A stretch of 64,000 nt of DNA, from NCBI GenBank assembly GCA_022827055.1, contig JAJDTR010000165.1, positions 17,682 to 81,681 of the forward strand, in the 5' to 3' direction. The stretch comes from Candidatus Poribacteria bacterium. Its GTDB lineage: Bacteria; Poribacteria; WGA-4E; JAJDTR01. Shown here piece by piece: positions 12,452 to 64,000 of the stretch. Every line of letters starts with the position of its first letter. The first letter of the stretch is position 1. The notes beneath the pieces are model-generated. The model was not told the DNA's origin, did not search any database, and saw nothing but the letters and a program-made list of their open reading frames with translations. Both the position numbers and the translations under genes were made by a program.

Positions 12452-13714
12452 GTGGTAAAGCACATGCACGTTGATCGAAATGAATTTCATCCACTCGAGG
12501 TGGATCGTATCCGCGAGGATTTTCCCATTTTTGCGGGTGATTCACCCATCGCCTATCTCGACAGCGCGGCATCCTCGCAGACGGCGCGCTGCGTGCTTGA
12601 AGCGATGGATGGCTACTATGAGAGCTATCGATCCAACATTCATCGGGGCATCTACCACATCTCGGAGGAGGCGACCGCGGCGTATGAAGATGCGCGGCAG
12701 AAGATTGCGCGATTTATCAGCGCGCGCCGCGCAAGTCAGGTTGTTTTCACCCGAAACACGACAGAATCCATTAACCTCGTCGCACACAGTTGGGGAAACG
12801 CCAATATCGGTCGAGACGACGAAATTCTCCTCACCGTGATGGAACATCACAGCAACCTCGTACCGTGGCAACTGCTCGCGGAACGAACCGGCGCAACACT
12901 GCGCTTCATTGAGGTGACCGATGAGGGATTGCTGCAATTGGACGATCTCGATCAGTTATTGACGGAACGGACAAAGTTGGTAGCAATCACACATGTCTCG
13001 AACGTCTTGGGAACGATTAACCCGGTTTGGGAAATTACCGCCGCCGCCCATTCCGTCGGCGCCACGGTGCTTATTGACGCCGCTCAAAGCGTGCCGCACC
13101 TGCCCGTCGATGCCCAAGCGCTTGACTGCGACTTCCTCGCGTTCTCGGGTCATAAAATGTGTGGTCCCACGGGCGTTGGCGTGCTTTACGGAAAGCGCGA
13201 ACTATTGGAAGAAATGCCGCCCTTCCTCGGAGGCGGCTCGATGATTCGAGCGGTGCAGCGCGAACGCTCAACCTACGCGGACGTACCCGCAAGATTCGAA
13301 GCGGGGACGCCAGCTATCGCCGAAGCCATCGGTCTCGGTCATGCGGTAGATTATCTTGAGAAGATCGGCTTGGACGCGGTGCACGCTCACGAACAGCAGA
13401 TAATCGACTACGCCCATCAGAAACTGAGTGAGATTGACGGAATCACCATCTATGGACCGAAACCCCGCATGAAGGCGGGAGTTATCACGTTCAATCTTGA
13501 GGGTATCCATCCCCATGATCTTGCCGGCGTGCTTGATACCACCGGGGTAGCAGTTCGAGCGGGACACCACTGCGCTCAACCGCTGATGCAACACTACGGC
13601 GTCATCGCGACGGCGCGCGCCAGTTTTTATCTTTACAACACGATGGAAGATGTCGATAGGTTATACGATGGGGCACTGAAAGCCCAAAACCTATTGGCGC
13701 GGAGACAAGGATGA
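12452..13714 (+). CDS. sufS: cysteine desulfurase SufS (PLP-dependent)
   Basis: Class-V aminotransferase fold, PLP lysine in FSGHKMCGPTG, and an active-site Cys loop. Confidence 0.9.
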   Translation: MVKHMHVDRNEFHPLEVDRIREDFPIFAGDSPIAYLDSAASSQTARCVLEAMDGYYESYRSNIHRGIYHISEEATAAYEDARQKIARFISARRASQVVFTRNTTESINLVAHSWGNANIGRDDEILLTVMEHHSNLVPWQLLAERTGATLRFIEVTDEGLLQLDDLDQLLTERTKLVAITHVSNVLGTINPVWEITAAAHSVGATVLIDAAQSVPHLPVDAQALDCDFLAFSGHKMCGPTGVGVLYGKRELLEEMPPFLGGGSMIRAVQRERSTYADVPARFEAGTPAIAEAIGLGHAVDYLEKIGLDAVHAHEQQIIDYAHQKLSEIDGITIYGPKPRMKAGVITFNLEGIHPHDLAGVLDTTGVAVRAGHHCAQPLMQHYGVIATARASFYLYNTMEDVDRLYDGALKAQNLLARRQG

Positions 13715-14109
13715 ATATCTACGAGGAAGACATTCTCGATCATTACGAAAATCCCAGCAATTACGGGACGTTGGAGAAACCCGATATCTCCTACGAGGAA
13801 GACAATCCCTTGTGCGGCGATCAGATTCGTATGGATCTTGAGGTCGAGGATGGCGTCATCAAGGATGTCCGCTTCTCCGGTCACGGCTGCACAATCAGCC
13901 AAGCGGCGGCGTCAATGTTGACGGAGGAGGTCAAAGGACAAGCATTGGACGACGTAAAAAAATTATCCAAGGACGACATCTTGGAAATGCTCGGCATTCC
14001 GCTCGGCCCGGTGCGCTTGAAATGCGGGCTGTTAGCCCTGAAGGTGTTGAAAGCCGGCGCTTACGGCATCAAAGGATGGCCCGGCGAAGAGGACGACGAG
14101 GAGGAATAA
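13711..14109 (+). CDS. sufU: SufU/IscU-like sulfur acceptor
   Basis: NifU-like N-terminal domain with conserved Cys residues (PLCGD, GHGC). Its ATGA start overlaps the sufS stop. Confidence 0.85.
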   Translation: MNIYEEDILDHYENPSNYGTLEKPDISYEEDNPLCGDQIRMDLEVEDGVIKDVRFSGHGCTISQAAASMLTEEVKGQALDDVKKLSKDDILEMLGIPLGPVRLKCGLLALKVLKAGAYGIKGWPGEEDDEEE

Positions 14110-14111
14110 GC

Positions 14112-14423
14112 ATGGCGGAGTTCTTCAAAGTCGCCAAAGTCAGCGAAATTCCTCCCGGCAAAAAAAAGCTGGTCGAAGTGGATTTTGTACCGGTCGCGCT
14201 CTTCAACGTGGACGGGGAATTCTACGCCATTGAGGACATCTGCACTCACGACGGCGGTCCTCTCGCCCAAGGTGAATTGGACGGTGAAGAGATTGAGTGC
14301 CCTCGCCACGGCGCGCGTTTCAGCGTGATCACCGGAGAACCCCTTTGCATGCCCGCCGTCGAACCCGTCGACTGCTACGAAGTTAAAATCGAAGGCGATG
14401 ACATTCTGGTGAATATTGATTGA
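14112..14423 (+). CDS. Rieske [2Fe-2S] ferredoxin-like protein
   Basis: CTHDGGPL and CPRHGARF Rieske boxes. I chose the ATG at 14112 after the sufU stop rather than the longer tracked ORF. Confidence 0.8.
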   Translation: MAEFFKVAKVSEIPPGKKKLVEVDFVPVALFNVDGEFYAIEDICTHDGGPLAQGELDGEEIECPRHGARFSVITGEPLCMPAVEPVDCYEVKIEGDDILVNID

Positions 14424-14435
14424 CGGCAAACCAGT

Positions 14436-14472
14436 GGGGCACTTGTAGGGTGGGCACTGCCCACCAGCCTCT
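14436..14472. repeat. REP-like palindromic element GTAGGGTGGGCACyGCCCACCAGCCTCT
   Basis: A near-identical copy lies at 19308-19345. It contains the hairpin GGGTGGGCAC/GCCCACC. Confidence 0.45.
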
Positions 14473-14654
14473 GAAAGCGTCGGTGAAGATGCAATGGGCG
14501 AATCGCTAATGCGACAGATAGTTCTGCGCATTAGGATTGCATCTAGATGCATCGTTATTCCCTGCCGCAGCCTGGAAAATAAGATAATTGCGGAACGCCA
14601 TCAATTCTACATTTGCGTAACTCCTGAGGAATCTCAAAGGGAAGGAAATCTCAA

Positions 14655-15857: not shown

Positions 15858-16304
15858 ATGAAAACACTGTTGCTCCTATTTTTTGCGTTTATCGGCGCGC
15901 TAGGCAACTCCATGTTCGCTGCGAGTCAAAAGAAAGCCATTGCCCTTGGAAACTCACTAGCATTTCTCGTCATATCAATTTTCGTCTCGTTTATCTTCGC
16001 TTTAATAGTGGCGCCTTTATCGGGACCAACGAAGTACACGACAATCATCAAACAGAGCTGGTTTTGGGTTGTTACAGGCGGTATCGGGCTATTCCTGACG
16101 TTTTTGGGTTTCAATCTGCTCTATATCAACTTTGGAACTTCAAGCTATATGCTCTACGCCGTGATGTCGATCATTACGACGTCGATCATCGTGTCGGTCG
16201 TGATATTCAAAGAGGCGTTTAACGCTTTCCACTGGGCGGCATTTGTCGGCGCAATTGTAACGATTGTCCTGTATACCATCGGCAACAGCATAAGCAAGAC
16301 CTAG
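15858..16304 (+). CDS. small multi-pass membrane protein (SMR/EamA-like half transporter?)
   Basis: Four hydrophobic helices. Start chosen at MKTLLLLFF. Confidence 0.4.
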   Translation: MKTLLLLFFAFIGALGNSMFAASQKKAIALGNSLAFLVISIFVSFIFALIVAPLSGPTKYTTIIKQSWFWVVTGGIGLFLTFLGFNLLYINFGTSSYMLYAVMSIITTSIIVSVVIFKEAFNAFHWAAFVGAIVTIVLYTIGNSISKT

Positions 16305-16655
16305 TAACCATCTTGCCCCGGGGTTGGGGATGATCGAGATTATAGGAGTAAGATCTACTGTTGGAACCCTTTTGGATATCCACTGCGGGTATTCCTATCG
16401 GTCAGATGCTCCGGCCTAATCAGTCTCTTCATCTCGGTTGGTTGTTGGGTTGATCTTCTCCAGAGGGGAGAGTCGTGACCGGGCGGTCGATCCTACAGGG
16501 ACTAACGGGCGGGGGAAACCTGCCCCTACGGTGCCACGGGTCACCCTCTCGTTTGGTCGGTTGATCGTTCCAACCGGGTGTTACACCGCGTAACCGTGTA
16601 AGTCTTAACGAAATAATCACCTTTCTCAATGCACTAATTTTAGAGCAAAATGTCG

Positions 16656-17180
16656 TTACTGCATCGTGAAGCCGAGGACAGTGCCGCCGACGCCTGTTAA
16701 CGTTAGCTTGCTCCCATTTATCGACCACGTACCGTTGATTATGTCGGCAAAATCAAAATCGATGTTCGCTTGGATATTTTCGGTCACGTCCACCCCCGTG
16801 GTCCCCGTGATCGTGATGGAATAGTTGGAACCGGACAGCGAATAGGTGCCCGTGGCTTCAAATGAGCTTGTCTCTACTTCGCCGGCGTCGTTTGGCGCCA
16901 CAAGGGTCGATGCCCTACGCCACATCCCGTCGCTTTCAAATGTCCAGTCCTCGATATAAGAGATTTCTAAATCTTGGCCGAGGGCGGCAGCCAATTGTTT
17001 GAATTGGTCTATTGTTTGCTGAATAGTTGCACCATCGACCGACTCGAGCGTCCATGTGCCCACTAACTCATTGTCATCGTCGCCCTCGCCGCCGCAACCG
17101 ATGATTCCGATAGTAAGAACGATACATAGACTCACCAACCAAGAGGGATAGAGATTTACTCGTCGATTCATGTTTTGCAT
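16656..17180 (-). CDS. hypothetical secreted/lipoprotein with a lipocalin-like beta-rich domain
   Basis: Signal-like N-terminus MQNMNRRVNLYPSWLVSLCIVLTIGIIGCGG at an internal Met of the tracked ORF. Confidence 0.45.
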   Translation of the reverse strand: MQNMNRRVNLYPSWLVSLCIVLTIGIIGCGGEGDDDNELVGTWTLESVDGATIQQTIDQFKQLAAALGQDLEISYIEDWTFESDGMWRRASTLVAPNDAGEVETSSFEATGTYSLSGSNYSITITGTTGVDVTENIQANIDFDFADIINGTWSINGSKLTLTGVGGTVLGFTMQ

Positions 17181-17749: not shown

Positions 17750-18049
17750 AGTTAATATCCAATAGTGTTATCCAGACGGAGATGGTAGTCTATCCTCGTT
17801 CCTGTGCCGGGCTGTAACTGTGAGGGAGAGTTAATATCAAGCGTTCATGCTCATGTTTGAACAGTTATAACACCGAAGTTCGTACAAATCAAGTTAATCC
17901 TTGAGCTATTCTGTTTACTTATAGTTTGTATCAACATCTTCTGCGTCGCAGAGAAGTCCCCCGCAGCAAGCGTGTAAAAATACACGCCGTTCGCCACGGG
18001 TTCCCCGAAGTCGTTTTTGCCTTCCCAATGGGATTAACCGAACGAATAG

Positions 18050-18135
18050 TGAGGGATCAACTGAGCGATTAGCGAAGGATCAAGGGAACAAATAGCGAAC
18101 GCGATAGAATTCCCATAGAAATCCTGTGCGATAGA
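18050..18135. repeat. three tandem degenerate copies of the dispersed GATCAAsCGA...GCGATAG element
   Basis: gattaaccgaacgaatagtgaggg / atcaactgagcgattagcgaagg / atcaagggaacaaatagcgaacgcgatagaattcccatagaaatc. Confidence 0.5.
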
Positions 18136-25905: not shown

Positions 25906-25956
25906 TGGTGTGCGATCATTCGTAATGGATAGCTTTTTTTACGTATTACGATCAAG

Positions 25957-26015
25957 CGACTGAATTAGGAGATCAAGCAAGTGAATAGCGCGCGCGATAG
26001 TAAATCCTGCGATAG
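25957..26015. repeat. two tandem copies of the dispersed GATCAAGCGA...GCGATAG element
   Basis: gatcaagcgactgaattaggag / atcaagcaagtgaatagcgcgcgcgatagtaaatcctgcgatag. Confidence 0.45.
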
Positions 26016-29764: not shown

Positions 29765-29850
29765 TCATCTGATATCAACCGACTGAACAACAAGCGCGAT
29801 AGGAATCCGATAGCCAATCCTGCGATAGGCCCTTTAGAAATCCCACAGAA
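29765..29850. repeat. dispersed GATCAAsCGA...GCGATAG element copy with trailing GCGATAG/ttagaaatccc motifs
   Basis: atatcaaccgactgaacaacaagcgcgataggaatccgatagccaatcctgcgatagg... Confidence 0.45.
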
Positions 29851-29954
29851 ATCGCTATTCACTGCCCGTCTACGGTTTTAGGGCTTTTACTGACCACTAG
29901 CCACTTACAGGCGTCCGAATGCGCAACTCCTAAATTGTTTGGGCGACCTGTTTG

Positions 29955-51217: not shown

Positions 51218-51540
51218 ATTTCTCCTTGATTTTTATCACAACCCTTTTATCAATAAATGCAAGAATTACGACTGTAGATTTTTCCTCCCGGCCTAGGTTC
51301 TGTTGACATTTGAAAATTGAGCCAAAATTGAGTCAATTTCCGTAGGGGTTGGGTTTCCCAACCCGCTGGGCGAGGAGACCTCGCCCCTACGATAGAGACT
51401 TATCGGCGAATTATGGACACACATTACATAAATGTCAACACGCCCTAGCCCTTTTATATCTTGGGCGACCTAGAGATTAGATTCTATTATGAATTCCTTA
51501 GCGTGTCTAGCGATTTGTAATCGCCCCACACGGAAAACGG

Positions 51541-51580
51541 ATGTGTATGTAGGATCAAGCGAATGGATAATGAGCGCGAT
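51541..51580. repeat. solo copy of the dispersed element (GGATCAAGCGAATGGATAATGAGCGCGATAG)
   Basis: Almost identical to the reverse-strand copy at 58083-58125. Confidence 0.5.
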
Positions 51581-51600
51581 AGAGATCCCCATGCCCCGCT

Positions 51601-52515
51601 CTACGAAGAACGCAGAACAGCGTCCACCCTCTCATGTGGTCTGAGCCGTGGATCCACCTCAACGCCGACAGCATGAGCCAAGGCGAGGTGAATCTGTCGG
51701 ACACCCTCCGTCAGAGCCGCAGGACCAGGCTGCAAGATGTAGGTCGATTTTACCTCGTAGACGTGTCCTTGACGCACGGCAGTTATTCCCGACCAACCGG
51801 GTCTAGCCGTGATACGATCTTTATTGACCTTGACGCCGCACCAAGAAGCGATGACCACCTCCGGATCACGAGAGACAACGTTACCGGGATCAAGGATACG
51901 GTCGCGTGCCAACGGTTTCTGGCGTAGTTCCGGGAATACCGGTTCCCCGCCCGCCAACTCGATGAGTTCCTCTACCCACTGAATGCCGCTAATTAACGGT
52001 TCGTTCCACTCCTCGAAGAAAACCCGCGGTCGTCGCGGAAAGCGCCGTGCCGACCCTCGAATCTCCTCCAACCCACTCGTCAGCGCCGAAGCGAGCGCTT
52101 TGCCTTTCTGCGGTGTCCCCACCAAACCAGCCAAGGTCAGAATCATCTGCAGAATCTCGGCGACGCTTCTTTGATTGAAGGCGAGGACGGTCAATCCTTT
52201 TTGGATCAACTCCCGCGCGATTTCGGCTTGCAGATCGGAAAAAGCCAGCACCAAGTCCGGGCGTAATTCCAAAATCTTGTCTATCTTTGCGCTGACAAAA
52301 GCCGAAACCCTCGGCTTGGACCGCGCCTCCTTGGGACGAACCGTGTACCCCGAGACTCCCGCGATTCGGTCCTCCTCACCCAAAAGATAAAGAGTTTCCG
52401 TGGTTTCGTCCGTCAAGCAGACAATGCGGCGAGGATAGCCGCCAAGGCTGTCAACGCTGAGTTTTTCCGGCAATGCCCCCGTCTTTATTCCCAATCTGTC
52501 TTGCTCGTTATTCAT
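51601..52515 (-). CDS. ABC-type substrate-binding protein of the siderophore/cobalamin (BtuF/FecB-like, class III) fold. No obvious signal peptide
   Basis: RIVCLTDETTETLYLL...DLVLAF pattern typical of class III periplasmic binding proteins. Confidence 0.55.
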   Translation of the reverse strand: MNNEQDRLGIKTGALPEKLSVDSLGGYPRRIVCLTDETTETLYLLGEEDRIAGVSGYTVRPKEARSKPRVSAFVSAKIDKILELRPDLVLAFSDLQAEIARELIQKGLTVLAFNQRSVAEILQMILTLAGLVGTPQKGKALASALTSGLEEIRGSARRFPRRPRVFFEEWNEPLISGIQWVEELIELAGGEPVFPELRQKPLARDRILDPGNVVSRDPEVVIASWCGVKVNKDRITARPGWSGITAVRQGHVYEVKSTYILQPGPAALTEGVRQIHLALAHAVGVEVDPRLRPHERVDAVLRSS

Positions 52516-53242
52516 TCGCTTGATCGTAATGCCTCAACACCGTCTCCAGCGCCTTCAAGTGAGCGGCGGTGCGCTGGCGCATTGGTAAACTCGTAGGTGT
52601 TTCGCAAATCATCACGTGGTCGGAGTGAAAAGCGAGTAGGTAAGGGGTAAACCCTTGTAGCCCCCAGCCGGGGTCGACCTTGAACACACCGTCAGCGATC
52701 AGCAAGTCGTTTTCATCGTGCTCCCGATCAATCGGGCAAACGCTCTCGACGTTCTTGGTGACCTCCGGCCCGATCCAGTTTTCACTTTTTCGTCCCTCAT
52801 AGAAGTAAAACCCCGCGGCTTCCCAATCCTCGTGAAAATCTATTGCGAAATCGAATCGTTCGCCAGCCACCGCCGCTTTGACGAGACGAGCTTCCTCTGG
52901 CGGATTGTCGACTTCAAACACACGGTTGAGATCTATCCCCGTTCCGTTTTCGCGGGTATCGTGGACATAGCCGAATGGATTGATGCAAGGCAGGATGAGA
53001 AACCCGAAGTTGCTATAGCGTGTTGCGTCGTATTCGTACAAGAAGCGCAGTACCGATTCCGGTCCCGCCGGTTCATCTCCATGCAGCCCCGCGGTTATTA
53101 GGACCTGACGCTTCGCACGAGGACCTCCCCCTACCATCAGACGATAGATGGCGCAGCCATCAACCTCTCCAAGGGCATCTTGCTCTAGGTTGGGCAAGCT
53201 TAATTCGCGTAATCTCCGCTCAAAATCATCATAATCCCGCAC
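52508..53242 (-). CDS. zinc carboxypeptidase-like protein (M14 / AstE-AspA family)
   Basis: HGDEPAG zinc-binding motif and NPFG motif. Confidence 0.55.
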   Translation of the reverse strand: MRDYDDFERRLRELSLPNLEQDALGEVDGCAIYRLMVGGGPRAKRQVLITAGLHGDEPAGPESVLRFLYEYDATRYSNFGFLILPCINPFGYVHDTRENGTGIDLNRVFEVDNPPEEARLVKAAVAGERFDFAIDFHEDWEAAGFYFYEGRKSENWIGPEVTKNVESVCPIDREHDENDLLIADGVFKVDPGWGLQGFTPYLLAFHSDHVMICETPTSLPMRQRTAAHLKALETVLRHYDQANE

Positions 53243-54724: not shown

Positions 54725-54822
54725 TTCGGTCCTCCTCTTCATCACGTCATTCGTGGCTACTCTGGTAGGCGCGGTTTCCAACCACGCTGAATGGTTAGAC
54801 CTTCAGTCCCCCTCCATCGGGG

Positions 54823-55011
54823 ATCAACCGAGTGAATAACGAGTGCGATAGCTAATCTTCTTAGGCCTCCAGAAGATACACACCTTTCGGGAATAGAGCA
54901 ATGCTTAAATGGGATATGCCGTTGGAGTCGAGTTAAAAGTTACATGCTTGCTACAGCGATGGGAATTCTATCACCTTCGCTATCAGGATCTCTATCGCGC
55001 TCCTTAATCAG
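54823..55011. mobile_element. MITE-like element copy i (189 bp) inside a CRISPR repeat
   Basis: TIRs are aTCAACCGAGTGAATAACGAGTGCGATAG and CTATCGCGCTCCTTAATCAGTCGCTTGATC. Confidence 0.6.
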
Positions 55012-55122
55012 TCGCTTGATCTGTTCGTTCGTTTAATCTCAGTTGATCCTTTTCGTCGGGGTATAGGTTGCTACCCGGTGCAGGAATTTGTATCAACTCG
55101 CCTCAGAATCTTTCAGTCCCCT

Positions 55123-55326
55123 TTTCGTCGGGAATCAACCGAGTGGACAACGAGGGCGATAGCTAATCCTCTTAGGTCTCCAGAAGATACACGCCTTTCG
55201 GGAATAGTGCAACGCTTAAATGGGATACTGCCATTGGAGTCAAGTTACAATTACATGCTTGCTACCGCGATGGGAATCCTATCGCCTTGGGATCTCTATC
55301 GCACTCGCTATGCACTCGCTCGACTC
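55123..55326. mobile_element. MITE-like element copy ii (about 204 bp) inside a CRISPR repeat
   Basis: About 88% identical to copy i. The right TIR is degenerate and is followed by TTTTCATCAG. Confidence 0.55.
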
Positions 55327-55468
55327 TTTTCATCAGACTCAACCCTCGTAGGCGGGGCATCCTGCCCCGCCTGAAGATGCCCTTCCTAATCAGGGCATGA
55401 GGTGTCACAATCCAAATCGCTCTGATCCGCTCCGGGCCAATCCACTTTCAGTCCCCTTTTCATCGGGG

Positions 55469-55573
55469 ATCAACCGAGTGGATAGCGAGGGCGATAGTAG
55501 TTTTCCTCCCTAATCACACACTTTAGGTCTCTCTTTGGAATCGCTATCGCGCTCCCTATCCGGTCGCTTGATC
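55469..55573. mobile_element. MITE-like element copy iii (105 bp short variant) inside a CRISPR repeat
   Basis: TIRs are ATCAACCGAGTGGATAGCGAGGGCGATAG and CTATCGCGCTCCCTATCCGGTCGCTTGATC. It is flanked by TTTTCATCGGGG and TTTTCATCGCGG. Confidence 0.6.
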
Positions 55574-55674
55574 GCTTTTCATCGCGGCATTCACTGCTAC
55601 AAGTGCGCGGCGCGCTTAGGGAGGTGGGAAAAGTGTTCTTTCAGTCCCCTTTTCGTCGGGGCATAGGTTGCTAC

Positions 55675-56079
55675 GACCTATCGATCAATAGCCGAAACTC
55701 CTCTAAACATAGAAACCACTTGCGTTTGTAAGTCATGCTTGTAATTTTGACACATCGGCACTGCCCTGTCAATTTCAAACGGCGCAGGCGCCAAGTATTC
55801 AGTGTTCATCAGTGTTTGACGGCTTAGCGTGTGGATTTTCGAAAATCGTTAGTTTGTCCCCAAACATCGCTCGGGGCACACGCAACCTCGACGTAGACTG
55901 CCGAAAATCGGGTTGAAATTCACGTGAAATGTAGTACCATCCCGCTGCGTAAATCTTTATTATCCACGGTCGGGACCAAGTCCTGTCTGCGTTCCACGCC
56001 TATATTGGGATTTCGCAAATCGACCCCCGTTTTCCGCAGAAAACGGATTTTCGAAACGCTTCGATTTTAATTGGATGCC
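55675..56079 (-). promoter_or_regulatory. CRISPR leader region with repeated palindromic GATTTTCGAAAmyC / CCGTTTTCCGCAGAAAACGG motifs
   Basis: Lies between cas4 and the first repeat. It is AT-richer than its surroundings and contains three related motifs. Confidence 0.45.
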
Positions 56080-56652
56080 TCACAACACATCGGCGCAGAA
56101 TCGCCGAAATTCGCATTCGACGCATTTTCCGCGCTGCGGCGTCGGTGGCGGCATCCATTCATCCGATAGCATCCGTCGGATGTCCCGGAGCGCGCCGCGC
56201 GTTTTCTCGCGGAGCGACTCTGATATTGCAATCGGCGTGATTCGCCCCGTGGGAATCCGATAGATAAACCCCTGAGTCACCGCGACGCCGAGACATTCCT
56301 CCACCATCATGGCGTAGGCTGTTAACTGGCATTTCGCGTTCAGGTCGAGTCGTCCTCTCGTGCTCTTGAACTCCACGGGGAACGCCCCGGTTTCCGTCTC
56401 GATAAGCAGGTCGAGCACGCCGGTCAATCCCAGTGACTCGGCATGGAGCGGAACGTGGAATTTCCGGCTGCCAGCCTCAAGCCCGTAACAGGCAAGCGTC
56501 CGGCGGCGCTCCAAGACGCTTAACACCTCGTGTTCGTCCGCGCCAAGCTCCATCGGGTGCGTCATCGGACGGTGTACCGGAGTGAAGTAGGTGTGGTAGA
56601 CCACCCGCGGACAGTAGAAATACTGTTTAATGTCGCTGACTCGTATATTCAT
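56080..56652 (-). CDS. cas4: CRISPR-associated exonuclease Cas4
   Basis: N-terminal Cys (YFYCPR), RecB-nuclease motifs (VLDLLIETE...EFKS, QLTAYAMM), and a C-terminal CVECEFRRFC cluster. Confidence 0.85.
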   Translation of the reverse strand: MNIRVSDIKQYFYCPRVVYHTYFTPVHRPMTHPMELGADEHEVLSVLERRRTLACYGLEAGSRKFHVPLHAESLGLTGVLDLLIETETGAFPVEFKSTRGRLDLNAKCQLTAYAMMVEECLGVAVTQGFIYRIPTGRITPIAISESLREKTRGALRDIRRMLSDEWMPPPTPQRGKCVECEFRRFCADVL

Positions 56653-56900
56653 CTTTCAGCATCCCCGATAATAGTGCGTTGGTCGAAATCCTTCGCACAC
56701 ACGCCGATCACCTCTATCTTTCCTTCGGCGGCTCCAAATTCTCGTGTCAGTTTCGCGTCCAACGCTCGGCGGCGCGTGGTATTAATGTCCCCCAAGAAAG
56801 CGCTGTATTGAATCCGTTTCAAACCGTAGTCGAGACAGACATCGGCAATCTTTTTGCGTATTCGGTCTTCGACGATGTCATAAATAACGTATGTGTACAT
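56649..56900 (-). CDS. cas2: CRISPR-associated endoribonuclease Cas2
   Basis: 83 aa, MYTYVIYDIVEDRIRKKIADVCLDYGLKRIQYSAF. Confidence 0.85.
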   Translation of the reverse strand: MYTYVIYDIVEDRIRKKIADVCLDYGLKRIQYSAFLGDINTTRRRALDAKLTREFGAAEGKIEVIGVCAKDFDQRTIIGDAER

Positions 56901-56906
56901 ACCACG

Positions 56907-58016
56907 TCACCAACTCGTCACCAACGGCTGATAATCCCTCTCTCCGCGCAGGAACATCGCCAGATGACGCGCCTGAATCTGGATGATATTGCACAGCTTC
57001 TGGTCTTTACGCTCGAACCGCTCCGTCTCCTGAAGCCGTTCCAGAATCCGGTCGGCGAGCGAGCGCCGCGTGCCTTTGCTCAAATACCGCTGCGTACCCG
57101 CGTCCGGATCCGCATCCGGCTTTGCCGACTGGTGCGCGGATTTGGCGGCGTCGTCATCCGGCTCCTCCCATTCGACCTTAAACTTCTTGTTAATCATCGC
57201 AAACACCACCCGGTCAACAATCGGCTGGCGGAACTCCTCGATGAAATCCAACACCAGCGACGGTTTGCCCGGGCGATCGACATGGAGAAATCCCGCGAAC
57301 GGTTCCAGCCCAGCCAGCGCAAGCGCGCTCCACACTTGGGAATAGAGCATCCCGTAGCCGTAATTGAGCAGCGCGTTCACATCGTCCGCCGCCCCCTGAT
57401 GTTCCCGCGTCGTGAATCGCCCGGTGGGCAGCAGCCGTTGCACACACTCCCAGTAGAGCGCTCCCGCGCGTCCCTCAAGGTTGAGCAACGTGGTTCGGAG
57501 GGCATCAATCGGCGACTCCCCGTTCTCCTCAACCCTCGGCGCTTGGAGAATCTGAATATCGCCCATCAGCTCCTCAATCTTGGTAGCCCGCTCCACCAGT
57601 TCGTCGTACCTCTTGGGCGCGCTTTTCTTGCGGTACTTGCCGAAATAGCGCACCAAGTTTATCTGATTCCGCAGCTTCCCCGCCGCGAACCGCTTGGCAA
57701 TCTCCACTCCGCGCTCATCGTGATACGCGGCGAGTTGCTCCCGCCGGGAGATGACCGTCGCCGTCAACGAAGGGCTGTTGAGTTTGGCGTACGGTTTGCC
57801 GTTGAAACTGAGAAACGAGATTTCAATCCCGCGCTCCGTGCACGCCTCAATCAGGTCCGACGACAAGCTAACCCCGCGCGACGCAATAACAATCTGATCC
57901 AGATCCATGAGGGCGTGCTCCTCTTTCCCCCGCTCCTCATCGCGATAGCGCACGCTGACGCGCTCCGAACGTTTGCCGAGGGAGGTGCCGAAGTCGGAGA
58001 TAGTGAGTTGGTTCAT
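56907..58016 (-). CDS. cas1: CRISPR-associated integrase Cas1
   Basis: Cas1 fold signature regions (ISDFGTSLGKRSERVSV..., NALLNYGYGML, and the E/H/D catalytic region). Confidence 0.9.
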   Translation of the reverse strand: MNQLTISDFGTSLGKRSERVSVRYRDEERGKEEHALMDLDQIVIASRGVSLSSDLIEACTERGIEISFLSFNGKPYAKLNSPSLTATVISRREQLAAYHDERGVEIAKRFAAGKLRNQINLVRYFGKYRKKSAPKRYDELVERATKIEELMGDIQILQAPRVEENGESPIDALRTTLLNLEGRAGALYWECVQRLLPTGRFTTREHQGAADDVNALLNYGYGMLYSQVWSALALAGLEPFAGFLHVDRPGKPSLVLDFIEEFRQPIVDRVVFAMINKKFKVEWEEPDDDAAKSAHQSAKPDADPDAGTQRYLSKGTRRSLADRILERLQETERFERKDQKLCNIIQIQARHLAMFLRGERDYQPLVTSW

Positions 58017-58082
58017 GTTTTTTTCCTTATAAAAAACTTCAGTTGTTTAGTTCAGTCTAGAACTTACGCGACAACAGGAGTT

Positions 58083-58125
58083 CGTGTTCGGAGATCCCTC
58101 GCTATCGCACTCATTATCCATTCGC
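58083..58125. repeat. solo copy (reverse orientation) of the dispersed element in the cas1 / brnT divergent promoter region
   Basis: The reverse complement is GATTAAGCGAATGGATAATGAGTGCGATAGCGAGGGATC. Confidence 0.5.
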
Positions 58126-58268
58126 TTAATCGTAAGCCGTGACACGTATCAATAGGAAGTACCAGAATTGGCAACGATTAGAGATTACTGAGTTTAAAGT
58201 GCCAACCTCAGTTATTTACATATTTTTATCTTGACATCTGTATATACACATTGTATACTATATGTGTC

Positions 58269-58544
58269 ATGGATTTTGAATGGGATTCAATGAAGAACCA
58301 ACATAACATCGAAAAGCACGGCATTGATTTTGCGAATGCGGTGCGCATATTTGGGAATCCAACGTTTGAAGTAGTAGACAATCGCCGCAACTATGGCGAA
58401 AAACGAGTTGTCGCAATGGGCACGGTTGACGACATCATACTTTATGTCGTATACACCACCCGAGGCGGCAATCGACGGATTATTTCAGCAAGGAGGGCAA
58501 ATCGCCGTGAAAGAAGAACGTACCGTGAAGGTTTCTCTCAATAA
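58269..58544 (+). CDS. brnT: BrnT-like toxin (DUF497/COG2929 ribonuclease toxin)
   Basis: MDFEWDSMKNQHNIEKHGIDFANAVRIF...RIISARRANRRERRTY is a conserved BrnT pattern. Confidence 0.7.
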   Translation: MDFEWDSMKNQHNIEKHGIDFANAVRIFGNPTFEVVDNRRNYGEKRVVAMGTVDDIILYVVYTTRGGNRRIISARRANRRERRTYREGFSQ

Positions 58545-58884
58545 CCTCCCGAAAAATACACAAACTGACTGGGAAAAAGTCAAAAATATGACCGAGGCCG
58601 AAATTAATGCGGCAGCGGCATCCGACCCCGACGCCCAACCCACCGATGAGGCGTTCTGGAGAGATGCCCACGTCGTGATGCCGCAGCCTAAACGCGCCAT
58701 CTCAATGCGAGTTGATAGCGACGTGCTTGCGTGGTTCAAATCGCAAGGACGCGGTTATCAAACACGCATAAACGCCGTATTGCGAGCGTATATGGAGGCA
58801 CACCGTTACGAAGATAAATCAGCTACGAATGCAACTGTAATCGCTGAAACTTCGAATCAACCCGAATCGGGTAAGGAAGCATAG
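58507..58884 (+). CDS. brnA: BrnA-like antitoxin (CopG/RHH family)
   Basis: AISMRVDSDVLAWFKSQGRGYQTRINAVLRAYMEAH. A GTG at 58507 follows an aggaggg RBS and overlaps the brnT 3' end. Confidence 0.6.
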   Translation: MKEERTVKVSLNNLPKNTQTDWEKVKNMTEAEINAAAASDPDAQPTDEAFWRDAHVVMPQPKRAISMRVDSDVLAWFKSQGRGYQTRINAVLRAYMEAHRYEDKSATNATVIAETSNQPESGKEA

Positions 58885-59022: not shown

Positions 59023-61407
59023 TTAGTCAAATGTCAATCCCGCCTCCGAGTCGTACGCGGCTTTAACGCGATACGGTTCTTTCCGTTCCCGGGGCAAGAT
59101 TCTATCATCATTTCTTAGAGCGTGATATCTCCTCCAGCTTATCGGGACTAACAGTTCTCCAGCGCGAATTGGCTCATCGTCGCATACGGTTTGGTATTCT
59201 TCATACATTGAATCTGGTAGCACCTCAAGCCCATCAAACGCCTTGAAAAACAGGTTCTCAAGTTCCTCATTTGCCGAAAACGGACGCATTGTTCTCACAC
59301 AAGTTTTGTCAAAGTCTGCGGCGGCGATTTCGTATTCCTCTCGCCAGCGCGCTTCAATCTCACCGCTGTAAATCTCATCCAGCCATCCTCCAATCGCGCT
59401 TTCGTCAATCGGTCGTTCATGTTCGCGCTCAAGAATTACAATCGTCTGTTCCACCAGTTCTGGGTCATAAATCTTTTGCCCGTCGTCGGGTTGGCGGAAC
59501 ACGTGAACTGGTGCAAGGTCTCTCTGTTTCCTGCCGCGGTTAATACGACCAAAGCGTTGCACGAGCGCTTCTAAAGGCGCCGGTTCTGTATAAATTGTGT
59601 CGAGGTCAATATCAAGACTAACCTCAACTACTTGCGTCGCAACGAGAACAATCGGATAGCGCGCGTCGCTTGTTGAGCCTGTCGCTTCTCTGATAATTTG
59701 CTCTTTCTTGGAACGGTCTCGCATGTTAAACCGACCGTGCAAGAGTTCGGTTCGGATATTTACCTCATTCAATTCGTTACGAATCCGTTCATATGCTTCT
59801 TGTGCGCGATCGACCAAGTTGCACACGACCAACACCGATTTCCCTGCCTTCGCATCTCCTGTCACCTTCGCTAGAATTGAATCATCTAATAACTCGCCAT
59901 CGTGTAGCATGAGCCGGTGACGCACGAATTTTTGAAATAACTCGGGAGCAGCTTCAACTGTAGTTGGTGTGTCTAAGGCTTCGGATAGCCACCCTTGAAT
60001 CAGTTTTGGAAAGGTCGCCGACATAACGAAGAAACGCGCGTTGAAATTTACCCTCAAGTATTCGATGGTCTTGAAAATCATAGCCAGTCGACCGACTTCG
60101 TAGGCGTGGATTTCGTCGAAAATGAACGCCGCGTTGTGGTAATCGGTAAGCAACGCCTCGTAACCCTTGAGGCGGTACATCCCTTTAAGCATCTGATACG
60201 GGCTAAACACACGGACGGGTGGATAATTCAGTCGTGAGAGATTCCGCGCCCGTCTCGCAGTGCGTGCCGCCGCTTGTGAGGAATAGTCCCTTTCCAAGAG
60301 ATCTCGGTAAAGAGCAAGTAGACTGCGCCCGTGCTGTAAACCTACACGCTTTGGAAAACTATCATTTAATCGCTTTTGCATAGCATTCATACTTGCTTGG
60401 TAGGGGAGCGTATAAAAAAGTCTGGGCAAACATCCTGTGACTGAAGATTGACGCGCCGCCCAGAGCAGCGCAGCTTCGGTTTTTCCGCTACCGGTAGGCG
60501 CTACCAAAAGTGCTGAATCATTAATTGTTGCGGCTTTTGACTGGTGTTCAAAGAGACCTTCCGGGGACAGGTCGCGGCTAGCTAAAATCGTGTCCGCGTG
60601 AAACTGAGCAAGTGGTATCGGTCCCGCGTGAGCCGAAGCGCTGTGGTCTGCATTGATAATGTAACCACGTACCGTAATTCCCGGCACAACTGCATGAGGT
60701 GCCTCGCCGTCCTCGAAACCTCGATTGAGTCTGCGGTAAACCCTCAGCCAATGCCGAATCCTTTCAACCCCACGCTGCTGAATGGACTCAATTGCAGTCT
60801 GCTCCGCCGGGAGTGTTGGTTCAAAGATGCCGCAATCAATGAGCCCAAGGTCATCTCGCCATGGGATAGCACATTCTGACAACCAACGCCACAATCCGTG
60901 CAAGCCCCCCTCTTTAAGAGACGCGAGTTGTGGTTGCAACGGATCATCGTCGTCGAAGTCAGGGATGGGGTAAATCCGCTGAATTTCCTCGAAATCCCGA
61001 TGATGCGAGACAATACTGGCAACAAGCCACTGCTGTTCTTCTGTCGAAAGATCACCTGCAATCCAATCGACAAACGCGAGCGAAAACACCTCGTGGCGGT
61101 GTCCCCAGACGGTTCCGTCAGAATGGAGCTGGGTTTGAAAGCTGTCCAATGCTTTTCCAAAATCGTGAAGAAACGCCGACCAATAAAGGACGTGCCATAA
61201 ACGCGGCACATTTAGCTGCTGCGGCAAGTTTGGGCGCAACCGGATAAACTCTGCTAACCGTGACAACACGTTCCATGTATGCCGGGCTAACGTCTCCGGT
61301 TGACCGTCTTCACCCAATTCCGCACTTTTTGCCCATACACCGTCTAACCAATCTGGACTTATTGAAGGCTTGCTCGCGACGGATTTAGTCAGCGGTTGCA
61401 TCTTCAT
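59023..61407 (-). CDS. cas3: Cas3 helicase-nuclease with N-terminal HD domain
   Basis: HD motifs (HTWNV, LHDFGKA, HRHEV) followed by DEAD/DEAH helicase motifs (APTGSGKTEAALLWAA, FDEIHAY). Confidence 0.9.
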   Translation of the reverse strand: MKMQPLTKSVASKPSISPDWLDGVWAKSAELGEDGQPETLARHTWNVLSRLAEFIRLRPNLPQQLNVPRLWHVLYWSAFLHDFGKALDSFQTQLHSDGTVWGHRHEVFSLAFVDWIAGDLSTEEQQWLVASIVSHHRDFEEIQRIYPIPDFDDDDPLQPQLASLKEGGLHGLWRWLSECAIPWRDDLGLIDCGIFEPTLPAEQTAIESIQQRGVERIRHWLRVYRRLNRGFEDGEAPHAVVPGITVRGYIINADHSASAHAGPIPLAQFHADTILASRDLSPEGLFEHQSKAATINDSALLVAPTGSGKTEAALLWAARQSSVTGCLPRLFYTLPYQASMNAMQKRLNDSFPKRVGLQHGRSLLALYRDLLERDYSSQAAARTARRARNLSRLNYPPVRVFSPYQMLKGMYRLKGYEALLTDYHNAAFIFDEIHAYEVGRLAMIFKTIEYLRVNFNARFFVMSATFPKLIQGWLSEALDTPTTVEAAPELFQKFVRHRLMLHDGELLDDSILAKVTGDAKAGKSVLVVCNLVDRAQEAYERIRNELNEVNIRTELLHGRFNMRDRSKKEQIIREATGSTSDARYPIVLVATQVVEVSLDIDLDTIYTEPAPLEALVQRFGRINRGRKQRDLAPVHVFRQPDDGQKIYDPELVEQTIVILEREHERPIDESAIGGWLDEIYSGEIEARWREEYEIAAADFDKTCVRTMRPFSANEELENLFFKAFDGLEVLPDSMYEEYQTVCDDEPIRAGELLVPISWRRYHALRNDDRILPRERKEPYRVKAAYDSEAGLTFD

Positions 61408-62110
61408 TTCCTACAAAGTTGTGGAAAATCAATCCGAGATGGCTGCCTCGGTACTCAGGCACCAACGGGTCAATCCAATGTGTGGAGTTCCCATTTGAAG
61501 GTGTCACTCGATCAGTGAGAACCGTATATTGCGAAAACTGTGGTTGACGGTTTCGATTGTAGTCTAGATAGCGCGGCAGCAAAACCGATACTCCCCGCCC
61601 CAATCTTTGCCCCATTTGGTGCGGAATAATTGTGTGCTCAAAGTAGACATTCTCGCTCTGCTGCAATTCAACCACGTTGATTTCTGTGTAAGTGAACAAG
61701 TCTTGCGACGTGCCCAAGGACACGGCATACCGAGGACTTCGGAAAGCCGTTTCCCAGTCGGGACGGTTGATGTAGAGCGTGAGACGCGGCTGAAATAGCA
61801 ATTCGCGTTCAAAGGGGTTTACATTGCCCTCAAGGGCATTAGGGATTTGAGTACCGGGAAACTTGCTACGATTAGATTTAGGTGGTGCTAACACAATGAT
61901 GTGTTCAATATCCCTAACGTGCCCCTGATGCGTGAAATGGTAAGCGAATTGAACCCCGCTTGAATCGAACCATTCCCCTAGTGCGCTACAGATGTGCCCG
62001 TAGATTGTCGCGGGCGGTGGCATCTGAAAACTGGGATGAATCTGTAGCATGAAATGTGGATAGCGAAAAGACGTAGTAAGCCCTTCCGCAACGATTCTAA
62101 GGACTTTCAT
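61385..62110 (-). CDS. cas5: Cas5 (type I-B-like)
   Basis: Internal start MKVLRIVAEGLTTSFRYPHF...PPPATIYGHICSALG, a typical Cas5 N-terminus, preceded by a gggag RBS. Confidence 0.7.
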   Translation of the reverse strand: MKVLRIVAEGLTTSFRYPHFMLQIHPSFQMPPPATIYGHICSALGEWFDSSGVQFAYHFTHQGHVRDIEHIIVLAPPKSNRSKFPGTQIPNALEGNVNPFERELLFQPRLTLYINRPDWETAFRSPRYAVSLGTSQDLFTYTEINVVELQQSENVYFEHTIIPHQMGQRLGRGVSVLLPRYLDYNRNRQPQFSQYTVLTDRVTPSNGNSTHWIDPLVPEYRGSHLGLIFHNFVGNEDATAD

Positions 62111-62177
62111 AGAAAACTCCCGAGTTAAGAATGAGAAACCGAGTTTTTTCGAAAAAAGCTCGGTTTCTTCTTTGCTC

Positions 62178-63266
62178 TCAATCCAACCAATTCGCATTTT
62201 CGGCTTTCTGTAAATCTTCCACAAACCCTTTGAATGCATCGCGTGGATGGCTCACGGTGAGTTTCGCCCCGCAAGCTGCAAAATCGGTTTCTTCATTCAA
62301 TGCCTTCAAAAGTTTAAGCCGTTCATCATCAAGATATCCCTTGACCCAACCAACGTAAATGTCTGAGAGAATGTCGTCCTTGAAAACTGCCAGAGCCTCC
62401 GCAAGCGCATCAACCTTCAATTCAGGCTCGCCGTGCTGATTGGCGCCGACGATGTGGCCGAAAATGTGATTGCCCCCTTTGGTCACTGCCCATATAACCA
62501 ACGCGGGACTTACATCTGTGTAGTGTAAAGACTGTTTCGCGCCGCCTTCAAGGTGTGCGAGACCATCCAACAGCGTGCTGATACGTTGAATCCGAGAGTC
62601 AAACGGTAGTCGATAGGCACTTTCGTCCTCCAAGTGTTCAAGGTTTTGGTCTTTCGCCAATTCAATGCGAACATCGTCAAGATTGCGAAAACCGGTTTTT
62701 TGCCGATAGGAAAATGTCCCTGCTGCATGCAAATCAAGCGAAAGCAGCCCTTTTAGGGTTGTACGATAGAATTGATGTTCGTGCGGAACCGGATCACCGT
62801 CATGCCTTGACATCGTACCGAAATCGTCAACAACGCGTGTCGGCGCAATAGAGACTAAGGTACTCACGCGAAAAGGTGAAACGCGAGTTACTGCGTCTGC
62901 GGTTTCAGTCTCGTTCGCTCGCGATTCGTCTGCTTCTCGTTTCTCCTTAGCGGAAGCCCTCTTTGATGGGGCTCGCATGTAGCCGAAAAGATCGTCGTCC
63001 CAATATTCAATAGGGTTGGCATCGGTATAAGCCACCTTTTCCTCCCGGTAGATTGGAGCAGGTGTCCAATTGAATTCACTCCCGTCTAAGGTTGTACGCA
63101 GCCAGTAGCGAAACGATTGCGCTGACACATAAGGATAAGCGCCCTGCCGTGTGCGAATCATCTTTACGCCTACAGTGTTATCGTTACGCGCACCGGGAAT
63201 GCTTCCGAGATTGTTGAGCGCGGATGCTGGAGCGTCAATGAGCATCAAACCAGTTGCAAAAGCCAT
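62178..63266 (-). CDS. cas7: Cas7 backbone subunit (DevR/Csh2-like)
   Basis: LIDAPASALNN and YVSAQSFRYWLR motifs resemble the Cas7 RRM core. An aaggagg RBS is present. Confidence 0.65.
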   Translation of the reverse strand: MAFATGLMLIDAPASALNNLGSIPGARNDNTVGVKMIRTRQGAYPYVSAQSFRYWLRTTLDGSEFNWTPAPIYREEKVAYTDANPIEYWDDDLFGYMRAPSKRASAKEKREADESRANETETADAVTRVSPFRVSTLVSIAPTRVVDDFGTMSRHDGDPVPHEHQFYRTTLKGLLSLDLHAAGTFSYRQKTGFRNLDDVRIELAKDQNLEHLEDESAYRLPFDSRIQRISTLLDGLAHLEGGAKQSLHYTDVSPALVIWAVTKGGNHIFGHIVGANQHGEPELKVDALAEALAVFKDDILSDIYVGWVKGYLDDERLKLLKALNEETDFAACGAKLTVSHPRDAFKGFVEDLQKAENANWLD

Positions 63267-63299: not shown

Positions 63300-64000
63300 T
63301 TAACTGTTTTCAGTCTTGTTCTCTTGGGCGGTCTCCTCAACCACATCGGGATTTTCGCCCAACCAGCCTTTTTCATGCAGCCGTTCGACCATTCTGATGA
63401 AGACAAGGTCACGCGCTAACCACCAGTCTAGCTTCGCCAATTCATAGCCCTCTTCAAAAACCTCAATGTACGGGTCAAATGTGATAATCGGGGCATTGCC
63501 ACGGTTGACATATTCTAGATTGGTGCGAATCAAGAGCGTGCGTACATTGTTCGGGTTTCTCTCACGAAAAAAATTAAGAAAGAAACGTTTGTCATTCTGG
63601 CTACTGACATAGTCCGCAAGTCTGTCGCCCATCTTGCGAATTTCCTCAATTCGTTCTTTTTCCATGTTATATACCCTCCTTAAAAAAGATGCGGTGATGC
63701 CCCACGAAACCAAATCGATACCACCCGTTAATCCGTATTCTGCCCGTGGATCGCCCTGTTCGGTGCGAGCGTAACGGAGTGCTCGACGCAAAAAGTAAGT
63801 TTGCAGGAACGTTTTTGCCTTGTCGGGTAGAAGAAACGTCCCATCATACAGTCCTAGAATATCCTCATAAAGCCAATTCCGACGCGGGTGAAACGGCTTG
63901 TTATCCTTCTGTCCCCTCTTTTTCTGCGGCTCCACTTCCCACGCCCGATGGACGATTCTGCCCCACTGGAATCGGTAATCAGGCTCCCCCATTTCACGTA
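63300..64000 (-). CDS. probable Cas8-family large subunit, C-terminal (small-subunit-like) part; reading frame remains open to the window edge
   Basis: Alpha-helical region directly upstream of cas7-cas5-cas3, matching the cas8b-cas7-cas5-cas3 order. No diagnostic motif, so this is a contextual call. Confidence 0.4.
   Translation of the reverse strand, partial: REMGEPDYRFQWGRIVHRAWEVEPQKKRGQKDNKPFHPRRNWLYEDILGLYDGTFLLPDKAKTFLQTYFLRRALRYARTEQGDPRAEYGLTGGIDLVSWGITASFLRRVYNMEKERIEEIRKMGDRLADYVSSQNDKRFFLNFFRERNPNNVRTLLIRTNLEYVNRGNAPIITFDPYIEVFEEGYELAKLDWWLARDLVFIRMVERLHEKGWLGENPDVVEETAQENKTENS

Follow-up and report, generated by a model that had tools for sequence, protein, structure and literature searches.

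A type I-B CRISPR-Cas (short palindromic repeats, clustered and regularly interspaced) locus of the sponge symbiont Candidatus Poribacteria was analyzed in a 64,000-nt stretch of contig JAJDTR010000165.1 (hereafter, the window). On the minus strand, the order is cas8b-cas7-cas5-cas3-(BrnT/BrnA)-cas1-cas2-cas4, followed by a leader, the array (55674-54799), and the glutamate dehydrogenase gene gdh (start at 54724). The original prediction, made from the letters of the window, described a decayed array whose repeats are split at an identical position by an element resembling a MITE (miniature inverted-repeat transposable element). The cas operon, the conserved leader, and one intact repeat at 55638-55674 identify a genuine, shrunken CRISPR array, and three repeats were indeed found to be interrupted at one fixed position by an inverted-repeat element. 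The features from the intact repeat to the intergenic region before gdh are as follows (REP, repetitive extragenic palindromic; L numbers denote other loci, described below).

55638-55674, minus strand: R1, the sole intact repeat, 37 nt, GTAGCAACCTATGCCCCGACGAAAAGGGGACTGAAAG; a CCCC/GGGG hairpin is predicted, and the repeat family forms regular arrays elsewhere
55601-55637, minus strand: spacer 1, 37 nt; no exact match in viral contigs
55574-55600, minus strand: 5′ part of R2, GTAGCAGTGAATGCCGCGATGAAAAGC, a rare variant; 97.5% match to L137 14638-14677, intact in L148 at about 16416-16452
55468-55573, minus strand: R2 element, 106 nt; full-length homology to array-borne elements of L138 and L137
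55445-55467, minus strand: 3′ part of R2, CCCGATGAAAAGGGGACTGAAAG, comprising the second copy of a 12-mer and the handle; the hairpin is re-formed with the last C of the element
55337-55444, minus strand: "pseudo-spacer", 108 nt, containing two hairpins, one of them (55347-55375) a dispersed REP-like element
55326-55336, minus strand: remnant of the 5′ part of R3, CTGATGAAAAG, the remainder lost (sequence inspection)
55133-55325, minus strand: R3 element, 193 nt, long type; 84% identity to the R4 element
55110-55132, minus strand: 3′ part of R3, CCCGACGAAAAGGGGACTGAAAG (sequence inspection)
55075-55109, minus strand: spacer 3, 35 nt; no exact match in viral contigs
55049-55074, minus strand: 5′ part of R4, GTAGCAACCTATACCCCGACGAAAAG (sequence inspection)
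55022-55048, minus strand: partial terminal module, 27 nt, in tandem with the R4 element (sequence inspection)
54822-55021, minus strand: R4 element, 200 nt, long type (alignment with the other elements)
54799-54821, minus strand: 3′ part of R4, degenerate (mutated last repeat), CCCGATGGAGGGGGACTGAAGG(T) (sequence inspection)
54766-54790, no strand assigned: REP-like hairpin (GGTAGGCGCGGTTTCCAACCACGC) of family GGTGCGGTTGGAAACCGCACC, between the array end and gdh

R1 was unique within the window at up to three mismatches (chance expectation, 0), and normal repeat and spacer dimensions were retained only by R1 with spacer 1 and by spacer 3. The cut point was identical in R2, R3, and R4, between repeat nucleotides 26 and 27 (...GAAAAG / GGGAC...), and 12 nt of the repeat, CCCGAYGAAAAG, was present on both sides of each element. 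This 12-mer takes in three C's out of four in the 5′ stem arm and, beyond the loop, the 3′ arm's first G, with the loop included. The original prediction saw CTTTTCRTCGGG repeated at the right border of two interrupted repeats; the duplication exists, but at all three (55049-, 55326-, and 55575-), with a unit of 12-13 nt. The repeat halves resume after the elements in general, as had been described, except that only an 11-nt CTTTTCATCAG is left in copy ii. The hairpin core CCCCTTTTCRTCGGGG occurred four times in 54.8-55.7 kb versus 0.07 expected, and a window search located a 29-nt terminal module at 54823, 55134, and 55469, and also at 6670 (expected, 0). Rfam at its gathering thresholds gave no match anywhere in the window. 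An independent short-read assembly, L001 (Logan SRR16351679), was 100% identical over 55282-58525, which spans R1, spacer 1, split R2, the 108-nt stretch, and the beginning of the R3 element, confirming that the split structure is not an assembly artefact.

Because the array is transcribed from the minus strand, the intact repeat is leader-proximal and the split repeats are older. What is left of the array is a leader, a single intact repeat with one normal spacer, and the trailer, an old block at the leader-distal end. The pseudo-spacer of about 110 bp with two hairpins noted previously is present as the 108-nt stretch, with the correction that one hairpin belongs to a dispersed family: hairpin 1 (55347-55375) is the REP-like GTAGGCGGGGCAnnnTGCCCCGCC preceded by GTAG, and its half-site GTAGGCGGGGCA was found in 14 sources, whereas hairpin 2 was unique to the window. 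When both strands were counted, the GGTGCGGTTGGAAACCGCACC family, represented at 54766-54790, had 54 matches in 30 sources, equivalent to ~27 palindromic sites. The trailer has collected three kinds of dispersed repeats.

In a contig scan, the 3′ half of the repeat was found in 23 metagenome stretches, many of which are regular arrays with a period of ~73 nt. We then compared the window with 13 places encoding a Cas1 that is 79-93% identical to that of the window. Eleven of the 13 have an array downstream of cas4; L147 stops right after cas4, and L149 has neither cas2-cas4 nor an array at this site. The numbers of intact repeats are as follows.

L137: 8
L138: 40
L140: about 59
L146: 65
L148: 47

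The arrays of L139 and L141-L145 have a diverged repeat 5′ half. L140 provides the un-invaded orthologous array that had been suggested for comparison: it is syntenic with the window (array, then gdh), and its repeat differs by one base. After this array, L140 19330-20010 contains three tandem units of ~200 nt, in each of which a repeat-like hairpin (GCCCCGATGAAATGGGG or GCCCGATGAATCGGGC) is joined to another kind of repeated sequence, ATTTAYAGTCGGGCGCGGCA.... Among 363 spacers in the relatives' arrays, a single spacer locus, present in both L142 (13292-13327) and L143 (13296-13331), had a non-array match of at least 24 nt. This spacer corresponds to a dispersed REP-like hairpin, TTACGGCATACGGCGCATGCCTACTAC, and not to the element; the hairpin is also in L093 and L057.

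The same split was found in three of these relatives. In L137 (Cas1 93%, fully syntenic), three tandem elements follow the intact repeats at 13635-14126 in the order GTAGCAACCATTGCCGCGATGAAAAGC / element A / CCCGATGAAAAG / element B / CCCGATGAAAAGC / element C / CCCGATGAAAAGGGGACTGAAAG, the separators being CCCGATGAAAAG(C), and a second split block ~500 nt further opens with GTAGCAGTGAGTGCCGCGATGAAAAGC/GATCAAGCGACC. The 500-nt stretch between the two blocks (14127-14640) contains two small open reading frames (ORFs; 103 and 79 aa) with no Pfam match on record. In L138 (Cas1 85%), 39 intact repeats are followed by a split repeat (16162-16316), one intact repeat, and another split repeat (16427-16700) that holds three tandem elements with the separators CGCGATGAAAAGC and CCCGATGACAAG. 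In L148 (Cas1 87%), the final repeat is split at the same position. The split therefore lies at the identical base in at least nine repeats of four genomes (the window, L137, L138, and L148), and in L137, L138, and L148 the split repeats are at the leader-distal, old end. The ~106-nt elements of window R2, L138, and L137 align over their full length, while those of R3 and R4 share the ends and have a longer, different interior. The 10 array-borne elements that were aligned all point the same way with respect to the repeat, with the AAG-type module 5′ and the AAC/AAA-type module 3′. In the loci with non-invaded arrays, L139 and L141-L145 had zero modules in 21 kb and L140 had two. Upstream of cas6 in L137 (1325-1430), modules of the R2-element type abut GCGGATGAAAAGC, which is the repeat 12-mer in opposite orientation; this site may be a remnant of a second, inverted array.

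An empty site was identified in L148, where the penultimate repeat is intact GTAGCAGTGAGTGCCGCGATGAAAAGCGGACTGAAAG, while window R2 and L137 14640 are split and carry the same rare 5′ half. This variant, GTAGCAGTGARTG, has four adjacent changes from GTAGCAACCATTG, and the window and L137 are 97.5% identical over 40 nt. The rare 5′ half is both a filled-versus-empty site and a shared derived character, and because GTAGCAGTGARTG is common to the window and L137, the structure is at least partly inherited. These results show that the elements are insertions into pre-existing repeats, not spacers; the alternative of ordinary long spacers in relatives, raised with the original prediction, does not hold given the intact variant in L148 and the regular arrays with the same repeat. 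The "three independent insertions" of that prediction also lack support in that form, given the same split at the leader-distal end of L137, L138, and L148 and the rare 5′ half shared with L137.

Each array element is bounded by inverted 30-nt modules, GATCAAsCGAnnGrATArnGAGnGCGATAG. The degenerate module pattern occurred in >112 stretches of the genome collection, every listed record being a metagenome-assembled genome of Candidatus Poribacteria, and a profile search found 366 module ends in 1.28 Mb of fetched DNA. The terminal module had no exact match in viral contigs. Further modules in the window lie at 6635/6669, 18032-18110, 25950/25971, 29774, 51553, 52525, and 58131. The outer module boundary is sharp, with conservation dropping immediately 5′ of GATC, and the DNA flanking a module is frequently part of other repeated units. 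Module copies are often solo, some form 61-nt back-to-back palindromes, and neighbouring pairs have the same orientation in 115/156 cases. Beyond the modules, the interiors of the R2, R3, and R4 elements had no copy elsewhere in the window or in the loci of other species. At 6635-6702, 18032-18110, 25950-26001, and 29774-29860 of the window, full and partial modules form intergenic clusters, share one orientation, and are spaced 21-35 nt apart; these clusters resemble mosaics of bacterial interspersed mosaic elements (BIMEs) or BOX elements more than canonical MITEs.

Modules also occur in or around genes. An in-frame module was present in cas1 of L138 (10470-10545, +22 residues) and L140 (+34) and absent from that of the window, L137, and L139; these insertions sit in a poorly conserved loop. 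In the window, a btuF-like (periplasmic-binding-protein) gene is bracketed by inverted modules (52493-52525 and 51553-51590). The upstream module overlaps the start of the ORF, so that its first residues, MNNEQDRLG, are repeat-encoded. No clean empty site was obtained for this solo module, as window and L137 could not be aligned upstream of the gene.

The array-borne copies resemble MITEs in being <300 nt and non-coding with inverted termini (106-200 nt, 30-nt inverted modules) and in having both filled and empty sites (the variant intact in L148 versus split in the window and L137; cas1 with versus without the module). They lack a target-site duplication of fixed length as a family trait: among 34 compact inverted pairs, a 12-13 nt duplication was found at array-borne copies only. 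The original prediction had further suggested sequence-specific targeting, which was not seen as a general property of the family. None of the ~330 non-array ends had a flanking duplication, and the 12-mer was found within two mismatches at one non-CRISPR site only (L015). The L015 flank, CCCGACGACAAGG, was rejected as a second target because it belongs to another repeated unit, not to a CRISPR repeat. Hairpin targeting as a general rule was likewise rejected: the 26 nt upstream of 175 non-array ends folded no better than controls (mean fold energy -2.90, versus -2.86 at 150 nt away and -3.02 kcal/mol for shuffles).

Candidate mobilizers were sought. An autonomous transposon with the same ends was not found in ~1.3 Mb, as visual inspection of the DNA between six convergent pairs spaced 1.1-3.4 kb showed ordinary genes; the window pair 51553/52525 around the btuF-like gene likewise encloses an ordinary gene. 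A Y1 gene resembling a REP-associated tyrosine transposase (RAYT) lies between cas1 and cas2 in L137 (11164-11730), L138 (11270-11836), and L140 (12064-12729), with shorter Y1 ORFs in L139 (11477-11788) and L148 (11230-11565). The L137 and L138 genes matched NF047646 at 72-73.5 bits, under the cutoff of 80. cas1 and cas2 are directly adjacent, with no RAYT-like gene, in the window (empty site 56900-56907), L142-L144, and L146. The RAYT-like gene is flanked by its own hairpin, GAAACCGAGTTTT...AAAACTCGGTTTC, which differs from the module. The window lacks this gene, and genomes with and without it do not correspond to those with and without invaded arrays; it was therefore rejected as the mobilizer. 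The module itself is not palindromic, so that the family differs from REPINs moved by RAYTs. It also differs from palindrome elements derived from IS200/IS605, since its ends are inverted repeats and a duplicated 12-mer flanks the array copies. Classical-looking REP families (GTAG, then a GC-rich palindrome, e.g. GGTAGGTGCGGTTTCCAACCGCACC and CGTAGGCGGGGCAnnnTGCCCCGCC) do occur at many loci, including window 6543-6568, 54766-54790, 55347-55375, and 51340-51390, and single GATCAAG modules are often inside the loops or arms of REP hairpins.

To predict the processing of the split repeats, we examined RNA folding. The final C of the element and the duplicated 12-mer restore CCCC-GAUGAAAA-GGGG followed by ACUGAAAG. 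The fold predicted for the R1-S1-R2 transcript has a self-paired element, and the hairpin stands immediately 3′ of it. A hairpin with an 8-nt 3′ handle, as expected for Cas6, is predicted in R1 and, in regenerated form, 3′ of each element. According to this model, each split repeat should still be cut by Cas6, giving the downstream spacer a normal 5′ handle, and the upstream spacer would gain a 3′ tail of ~130-230 nt that folds back on itself. Tolerance of a split at this point, where hairpin and handle are kept, could explain why only this insertion position survives. The interruption had been regarded as an unusual way to inactivate an array; this is not borne out, as relatives keep 8-47 intact repeats upstream and the split repeats retain the predicted hairpin and handle.

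How the elements came to occupy the same position is best explained, in our view, by old insertions, one or a few in number, which were passed on and then reshuffled by recombination between repeats, a reading we consider somewhat better than evenly probable. Spread by repeat-mediated recombination was one of the two possibilities named in the original prediction. At the founding stage, an ancestor of the window, L137, L138, and L148 lineages would have received one or a few insertions that each came with a 12-nt duplication. The inherited split repeats would then have been moved, tandemized, and mixed by homologous or short-homology recombination between repeat copies, including gene conversion, exchange at the 12-mers, and deletions between elements. 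The same recombination would have removed most ordinary repeat-spacer units in the window genome, which has one intact repeat versus 8-65 in close relatives; by supplying homologies of 100-200 nt inside the array, the elements are a plausible cause of this loss.

Support comes from the flanking 12-mers, because the two copies beside one element often disagree at positions where the repeat variants are polymorphic. In window R2, the left copy is of the CGCG..C type, as in the L148 empty site, and the right copy is CCCG..G. L138_a has GATG to the left of the element and, to its right, GACG, the form found in all 40 resident L138 repeats. In L137, the right half is of the GGGG type, and all eight resident repeats have GCGG. 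An insertion in a single step would leave the resident sequence on both sides; mosaic 12-mers, at exactly the positions that vary among repeat variants, are the expected product of exchange between already-split repeats. The uniform orientation of the 10 elements, the restriction of duplication and motif to array copies, and the position at the old end also favour recombination. This form of CRISPR array decay is inherited and unusual but not revolutionary.

Several observations weigh against inheritance with recombination. Two distinct interiors occupy the same site (106 nt in R2, L138, and L137; 193-200 nt in R3 and R4), so that separate insertions would be simpler. Tandems with only a 12-mer in between are expected from repeated insertion into a regenerated target, the homology arms for gene conversion are just 26 and 23 nt, and in L138 two split repeats flank an intact one. 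The spacers beside split repeats are not common to different genomes, and positional orthology therefore depends on the rare 5′ half by itself. Cas6 cutting of the split repeats is a prediction from folding alone. Finally, no enzyme was identified for the founding event, no duplications were found elsewhere in the family, and the reading gives no origin for the 12-nt duplication.

The main alternative is active homing, which we regard as a possible but less likely account. Here, a trans-acting enzyme would repeatedly insert the element, or a sub-family of it, at CSCGAYGAAAAGS of the CRISPR repeat in one orientation, and each event would duplicate 12-13 nt or bring its own copy, remaking both the target and a Cas6-competent hairpin. 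Because the target is remade at each insertion, elements would pile up in tandem and in several repeats. Use of the same phosphodiester in at least nine repeats of four genomes, the two interior types at one site, the 12-mer as the only separator of tandem elements, and the uniform orientation are all as homing would predict. In addition, the left junction occurs with both hairpin variants (CGCG..C/GATC and CCCG..G/GATC), and loci without the family have un-invaded arrays. However, in L138, L140, L146, and L148, no element sits in >300 intact repeats that contain the same 12-mer, although L138 and L148 carry the family. Only repeats at the trailer end are split, with one intact repeat left between the two split blocks of L138, and the flanking 12-mers often differ from each other or from the resident repeat. 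Outside arrays, the ends have no duplication, a 12-mer-like flank was found at a single non-CRISPR site (L015) in ~330 ends, and the upstream flanks show no hairpin preference. Nor do the long convergent pairs enclose a transposase, and the cognate hairpins of the relatives' RAYT-like gene are different. We propose only tentatively, as an idea that is probably incorrect, that the element sub-family is a CRISPR-repeat homing element that uses arrays as a tolerated safe harbour, with an agent that could conceivably even be the adaptation integrase.

A specific mechanism of the latter kind, in which Cas1-Cas2(-Cas4) acts like a casposase and staggered attacks 12 nt apart around the repeat palindrome join DNA ending in terminal inverted repeats (TIRs), is very improbable. 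Circumstantially, the insertions are in the natural Cas1 substrate beside intact cas1-cas2-cas4, and inverted ends with a direct duplication approach the casposon case, in which the duplication is 14-15 bp. In contrast, the family is dispersed genome-wide, far from cas genes, without duplications; the inserts are 106-200 nt versus the ~35-37 nt spacers that Cas1-Cas2 measures in these arrays; and the leader-repeat junctions are without insertion. Least credible of all is that nothing was inserted, the "elements" being either atypical spacers of great length or a chimera created during assembly at repeats. Breaks in short-read contigs do occur at this locus type (L001 stops inside the R3 element and L146 just past its array), but both readings are refuted by the hundreds of terminal modules outside arrays, the repeat cut in two with 12 nt duplicated, the intact R2-variant homologue (empty site) in L148, the identical independent assembly L001, and the same architecture in the L137 and L138 contigs, whose names suggest long-read assemblies.

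IS6110 sits in the direct repeat locus of M. tuberculosis. Mobile elements in CRISPR arrays have been described as rare, single events (PMC4390879, PMC3119063): the MITE HqIRS37 in a spacer of a residual Haloquadratum walsbyi array (PMC3119063), and, in euryarchaeal loci, ISH4 and a 132-bp MITE, along with ISC1359 within a spacer of Sulfolobus, where it is stated explicitly that arrays otherwise resist transposition (PMC4390879). The present case is similar to those of the HqIRS37/ISC1359 type in that a small mobile element within the array is tied to remnant or decaying arrays. Whereas HqIRS37 and ISC1359 are single events in spacers, here the repeat is split at one base in at least nine repeats of four genomes with a 12-nt duplication, sometimes in tandem, conserved across species, and with hairpin and handle intact. 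The decay at the leader-distal end and the mutated 3′ part of R4 are also reminiscent of degenerate terminal CRISPR repeats, but it proceeds by insertion of dispersed elements and REPs and not by point mutation alone. In the open-access full-text literature, we found no account of recurrent insertion at one intra-repeat position or of these Poribacteria repeats, an absence that is not proof.

The Correia/NEMIS elements of Neisseria and the Rickettsia palindromic elements are bacterial MITEs of 60-200 nt with TIRs of ~30 nt and hundreds of copies. The Poribacteria family resembles both in size, TIRs, copy number, intergenic location, and occasional in-frame insertion (cas1 of L138 and L140). 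It differs from both (NEMIS is mentioned in bioRxiv 10.1101/2024.01.18.576133) in having no consistent target-site duplication outside arrays, many solo or same-orientation modules, and no autonomous partner found. Like RAYT-mobilized REP/BIME/REPIN sequences, it is modular, mosaic, intergenic, and high-copy, and its inverted pairs fold into long hairpins, but the GATCAAG module is not itself a palindrome and is without GTAG. IS1397 and ISKpn1 are autonomous members of the IS3 family that insert specifically into REP palindromes and make duplications of a few bp. The concept is similar, as the preferred target is the stem-loop of another repeated sequence; the Poribacteria element, however, has no genome-wide hairpin preference.

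Here, a dispersed family is lodged at a single exact point of the repeat, in more than one repeat and more than one species, with the predicted processing signal intact, and it supplies extended stretches of homology between repeats. If recombination is the correct reading, the elements are a route of array collapse by which trailer ends become mosaics, and the window, with one intact repeat beside an apparently intact cas operon, is an example. If homing is true, the family would be the first repeat-specific parasite of CRISPR arrays and a natural test of how much foreign RNA Cas6 or Cascade tolerates in precursor CRISPR RNA. Because short-read assemblies are broken by split repeats and CRISPR finders fail on them, too few arrays may be called in sponge symbionts.

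The adjoining cas operon contains the signature genes of a type I-B system, namely cas8b, cas7 (Cst2/DevR), cas5b, cas3, cas1, cas2, and cas4. The features upstream of the array are as follows.

63300-64000, minus strand: cas8b, C-terminal part; 88% identity to residues 270-499 of the 499-aa L137 protein sited between cas6 and cas7
62178-63266, minus strand: cas7 (type I-B Cst2/DevR); NCBIfam TIGR02585, 170.5 bits versus a cutoff of 72.75, and a weak Pfam DevR match
61385-62239, minus strand: cas5 (type I-B Cas5b/Cas5t); NCBIfam TIGR01895, 103.2 bits versus a cutoff of 96.7
59023-61407, minus strand: cas3 (HD nuclease and helicase); Pfam Cas3_HD, DEAD, Helicase_C, and Cas3-like_C_2
58251-58884, plus strand: BrnT toxin/BrnA antitoxin pair between cas3 and cas1, on the opposite strand; Pfam BrnT_toxin 3.7e-27, BrnA_antitoxin 3.5e-18
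58099-58131, minus strand: solo copy of the family's terminal module, located upstream of cas1; nhmmer 30.3 bits, sequence inspected
56907-58016, minus strand: cas1; Pfam Cas_Cas1 1.9e-70
56649-56900, minus strand: cas2; Pfam CRISPR_Cas2 4.5e-15
56080-56652, minus strand: cas4; Pfam Cas_Cas4 6.8e-16
55675-56079, minus strand: leader, 405 nt; 74-76% identity over ~450 nt to the stretch from cas4 to the first repeat of L137 and L138

The cas8b ORF is open up to base 64000, and the gene extends past the window edge. cas6 is outside the window; in L137, it is upstream of cas8b. BrnT/BrnA genes likewise lie between cas3 and cas1 in L146. A promoter scan of the leader detected a promoter-like site, TTGACA-17-CAAAAT (55772-55744), ~70 nt before the first repeat. 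In the leader, an 18-nt, partly palindromic motif (GTGGATTTTCGAAAATCG-like) occurs four times within 55831-56060. A WYL-domain regulator is encoded upstream of cas6 in relatives, and the GTGGATTTTCGAAAATCG-like motifs could be sites for this regulator. The cas1-cas2-cas4 modules, leaders, and repeats are near-identical among these loci, but the effector genes are type I-D-like (Csc1/Csc2) in L138, L144, L145, and L148 and type I-B in the window, L137, L139-L143, and L146. On sequence comparison, this effector swap beside near-identical adaptation modules indicates module exchange.

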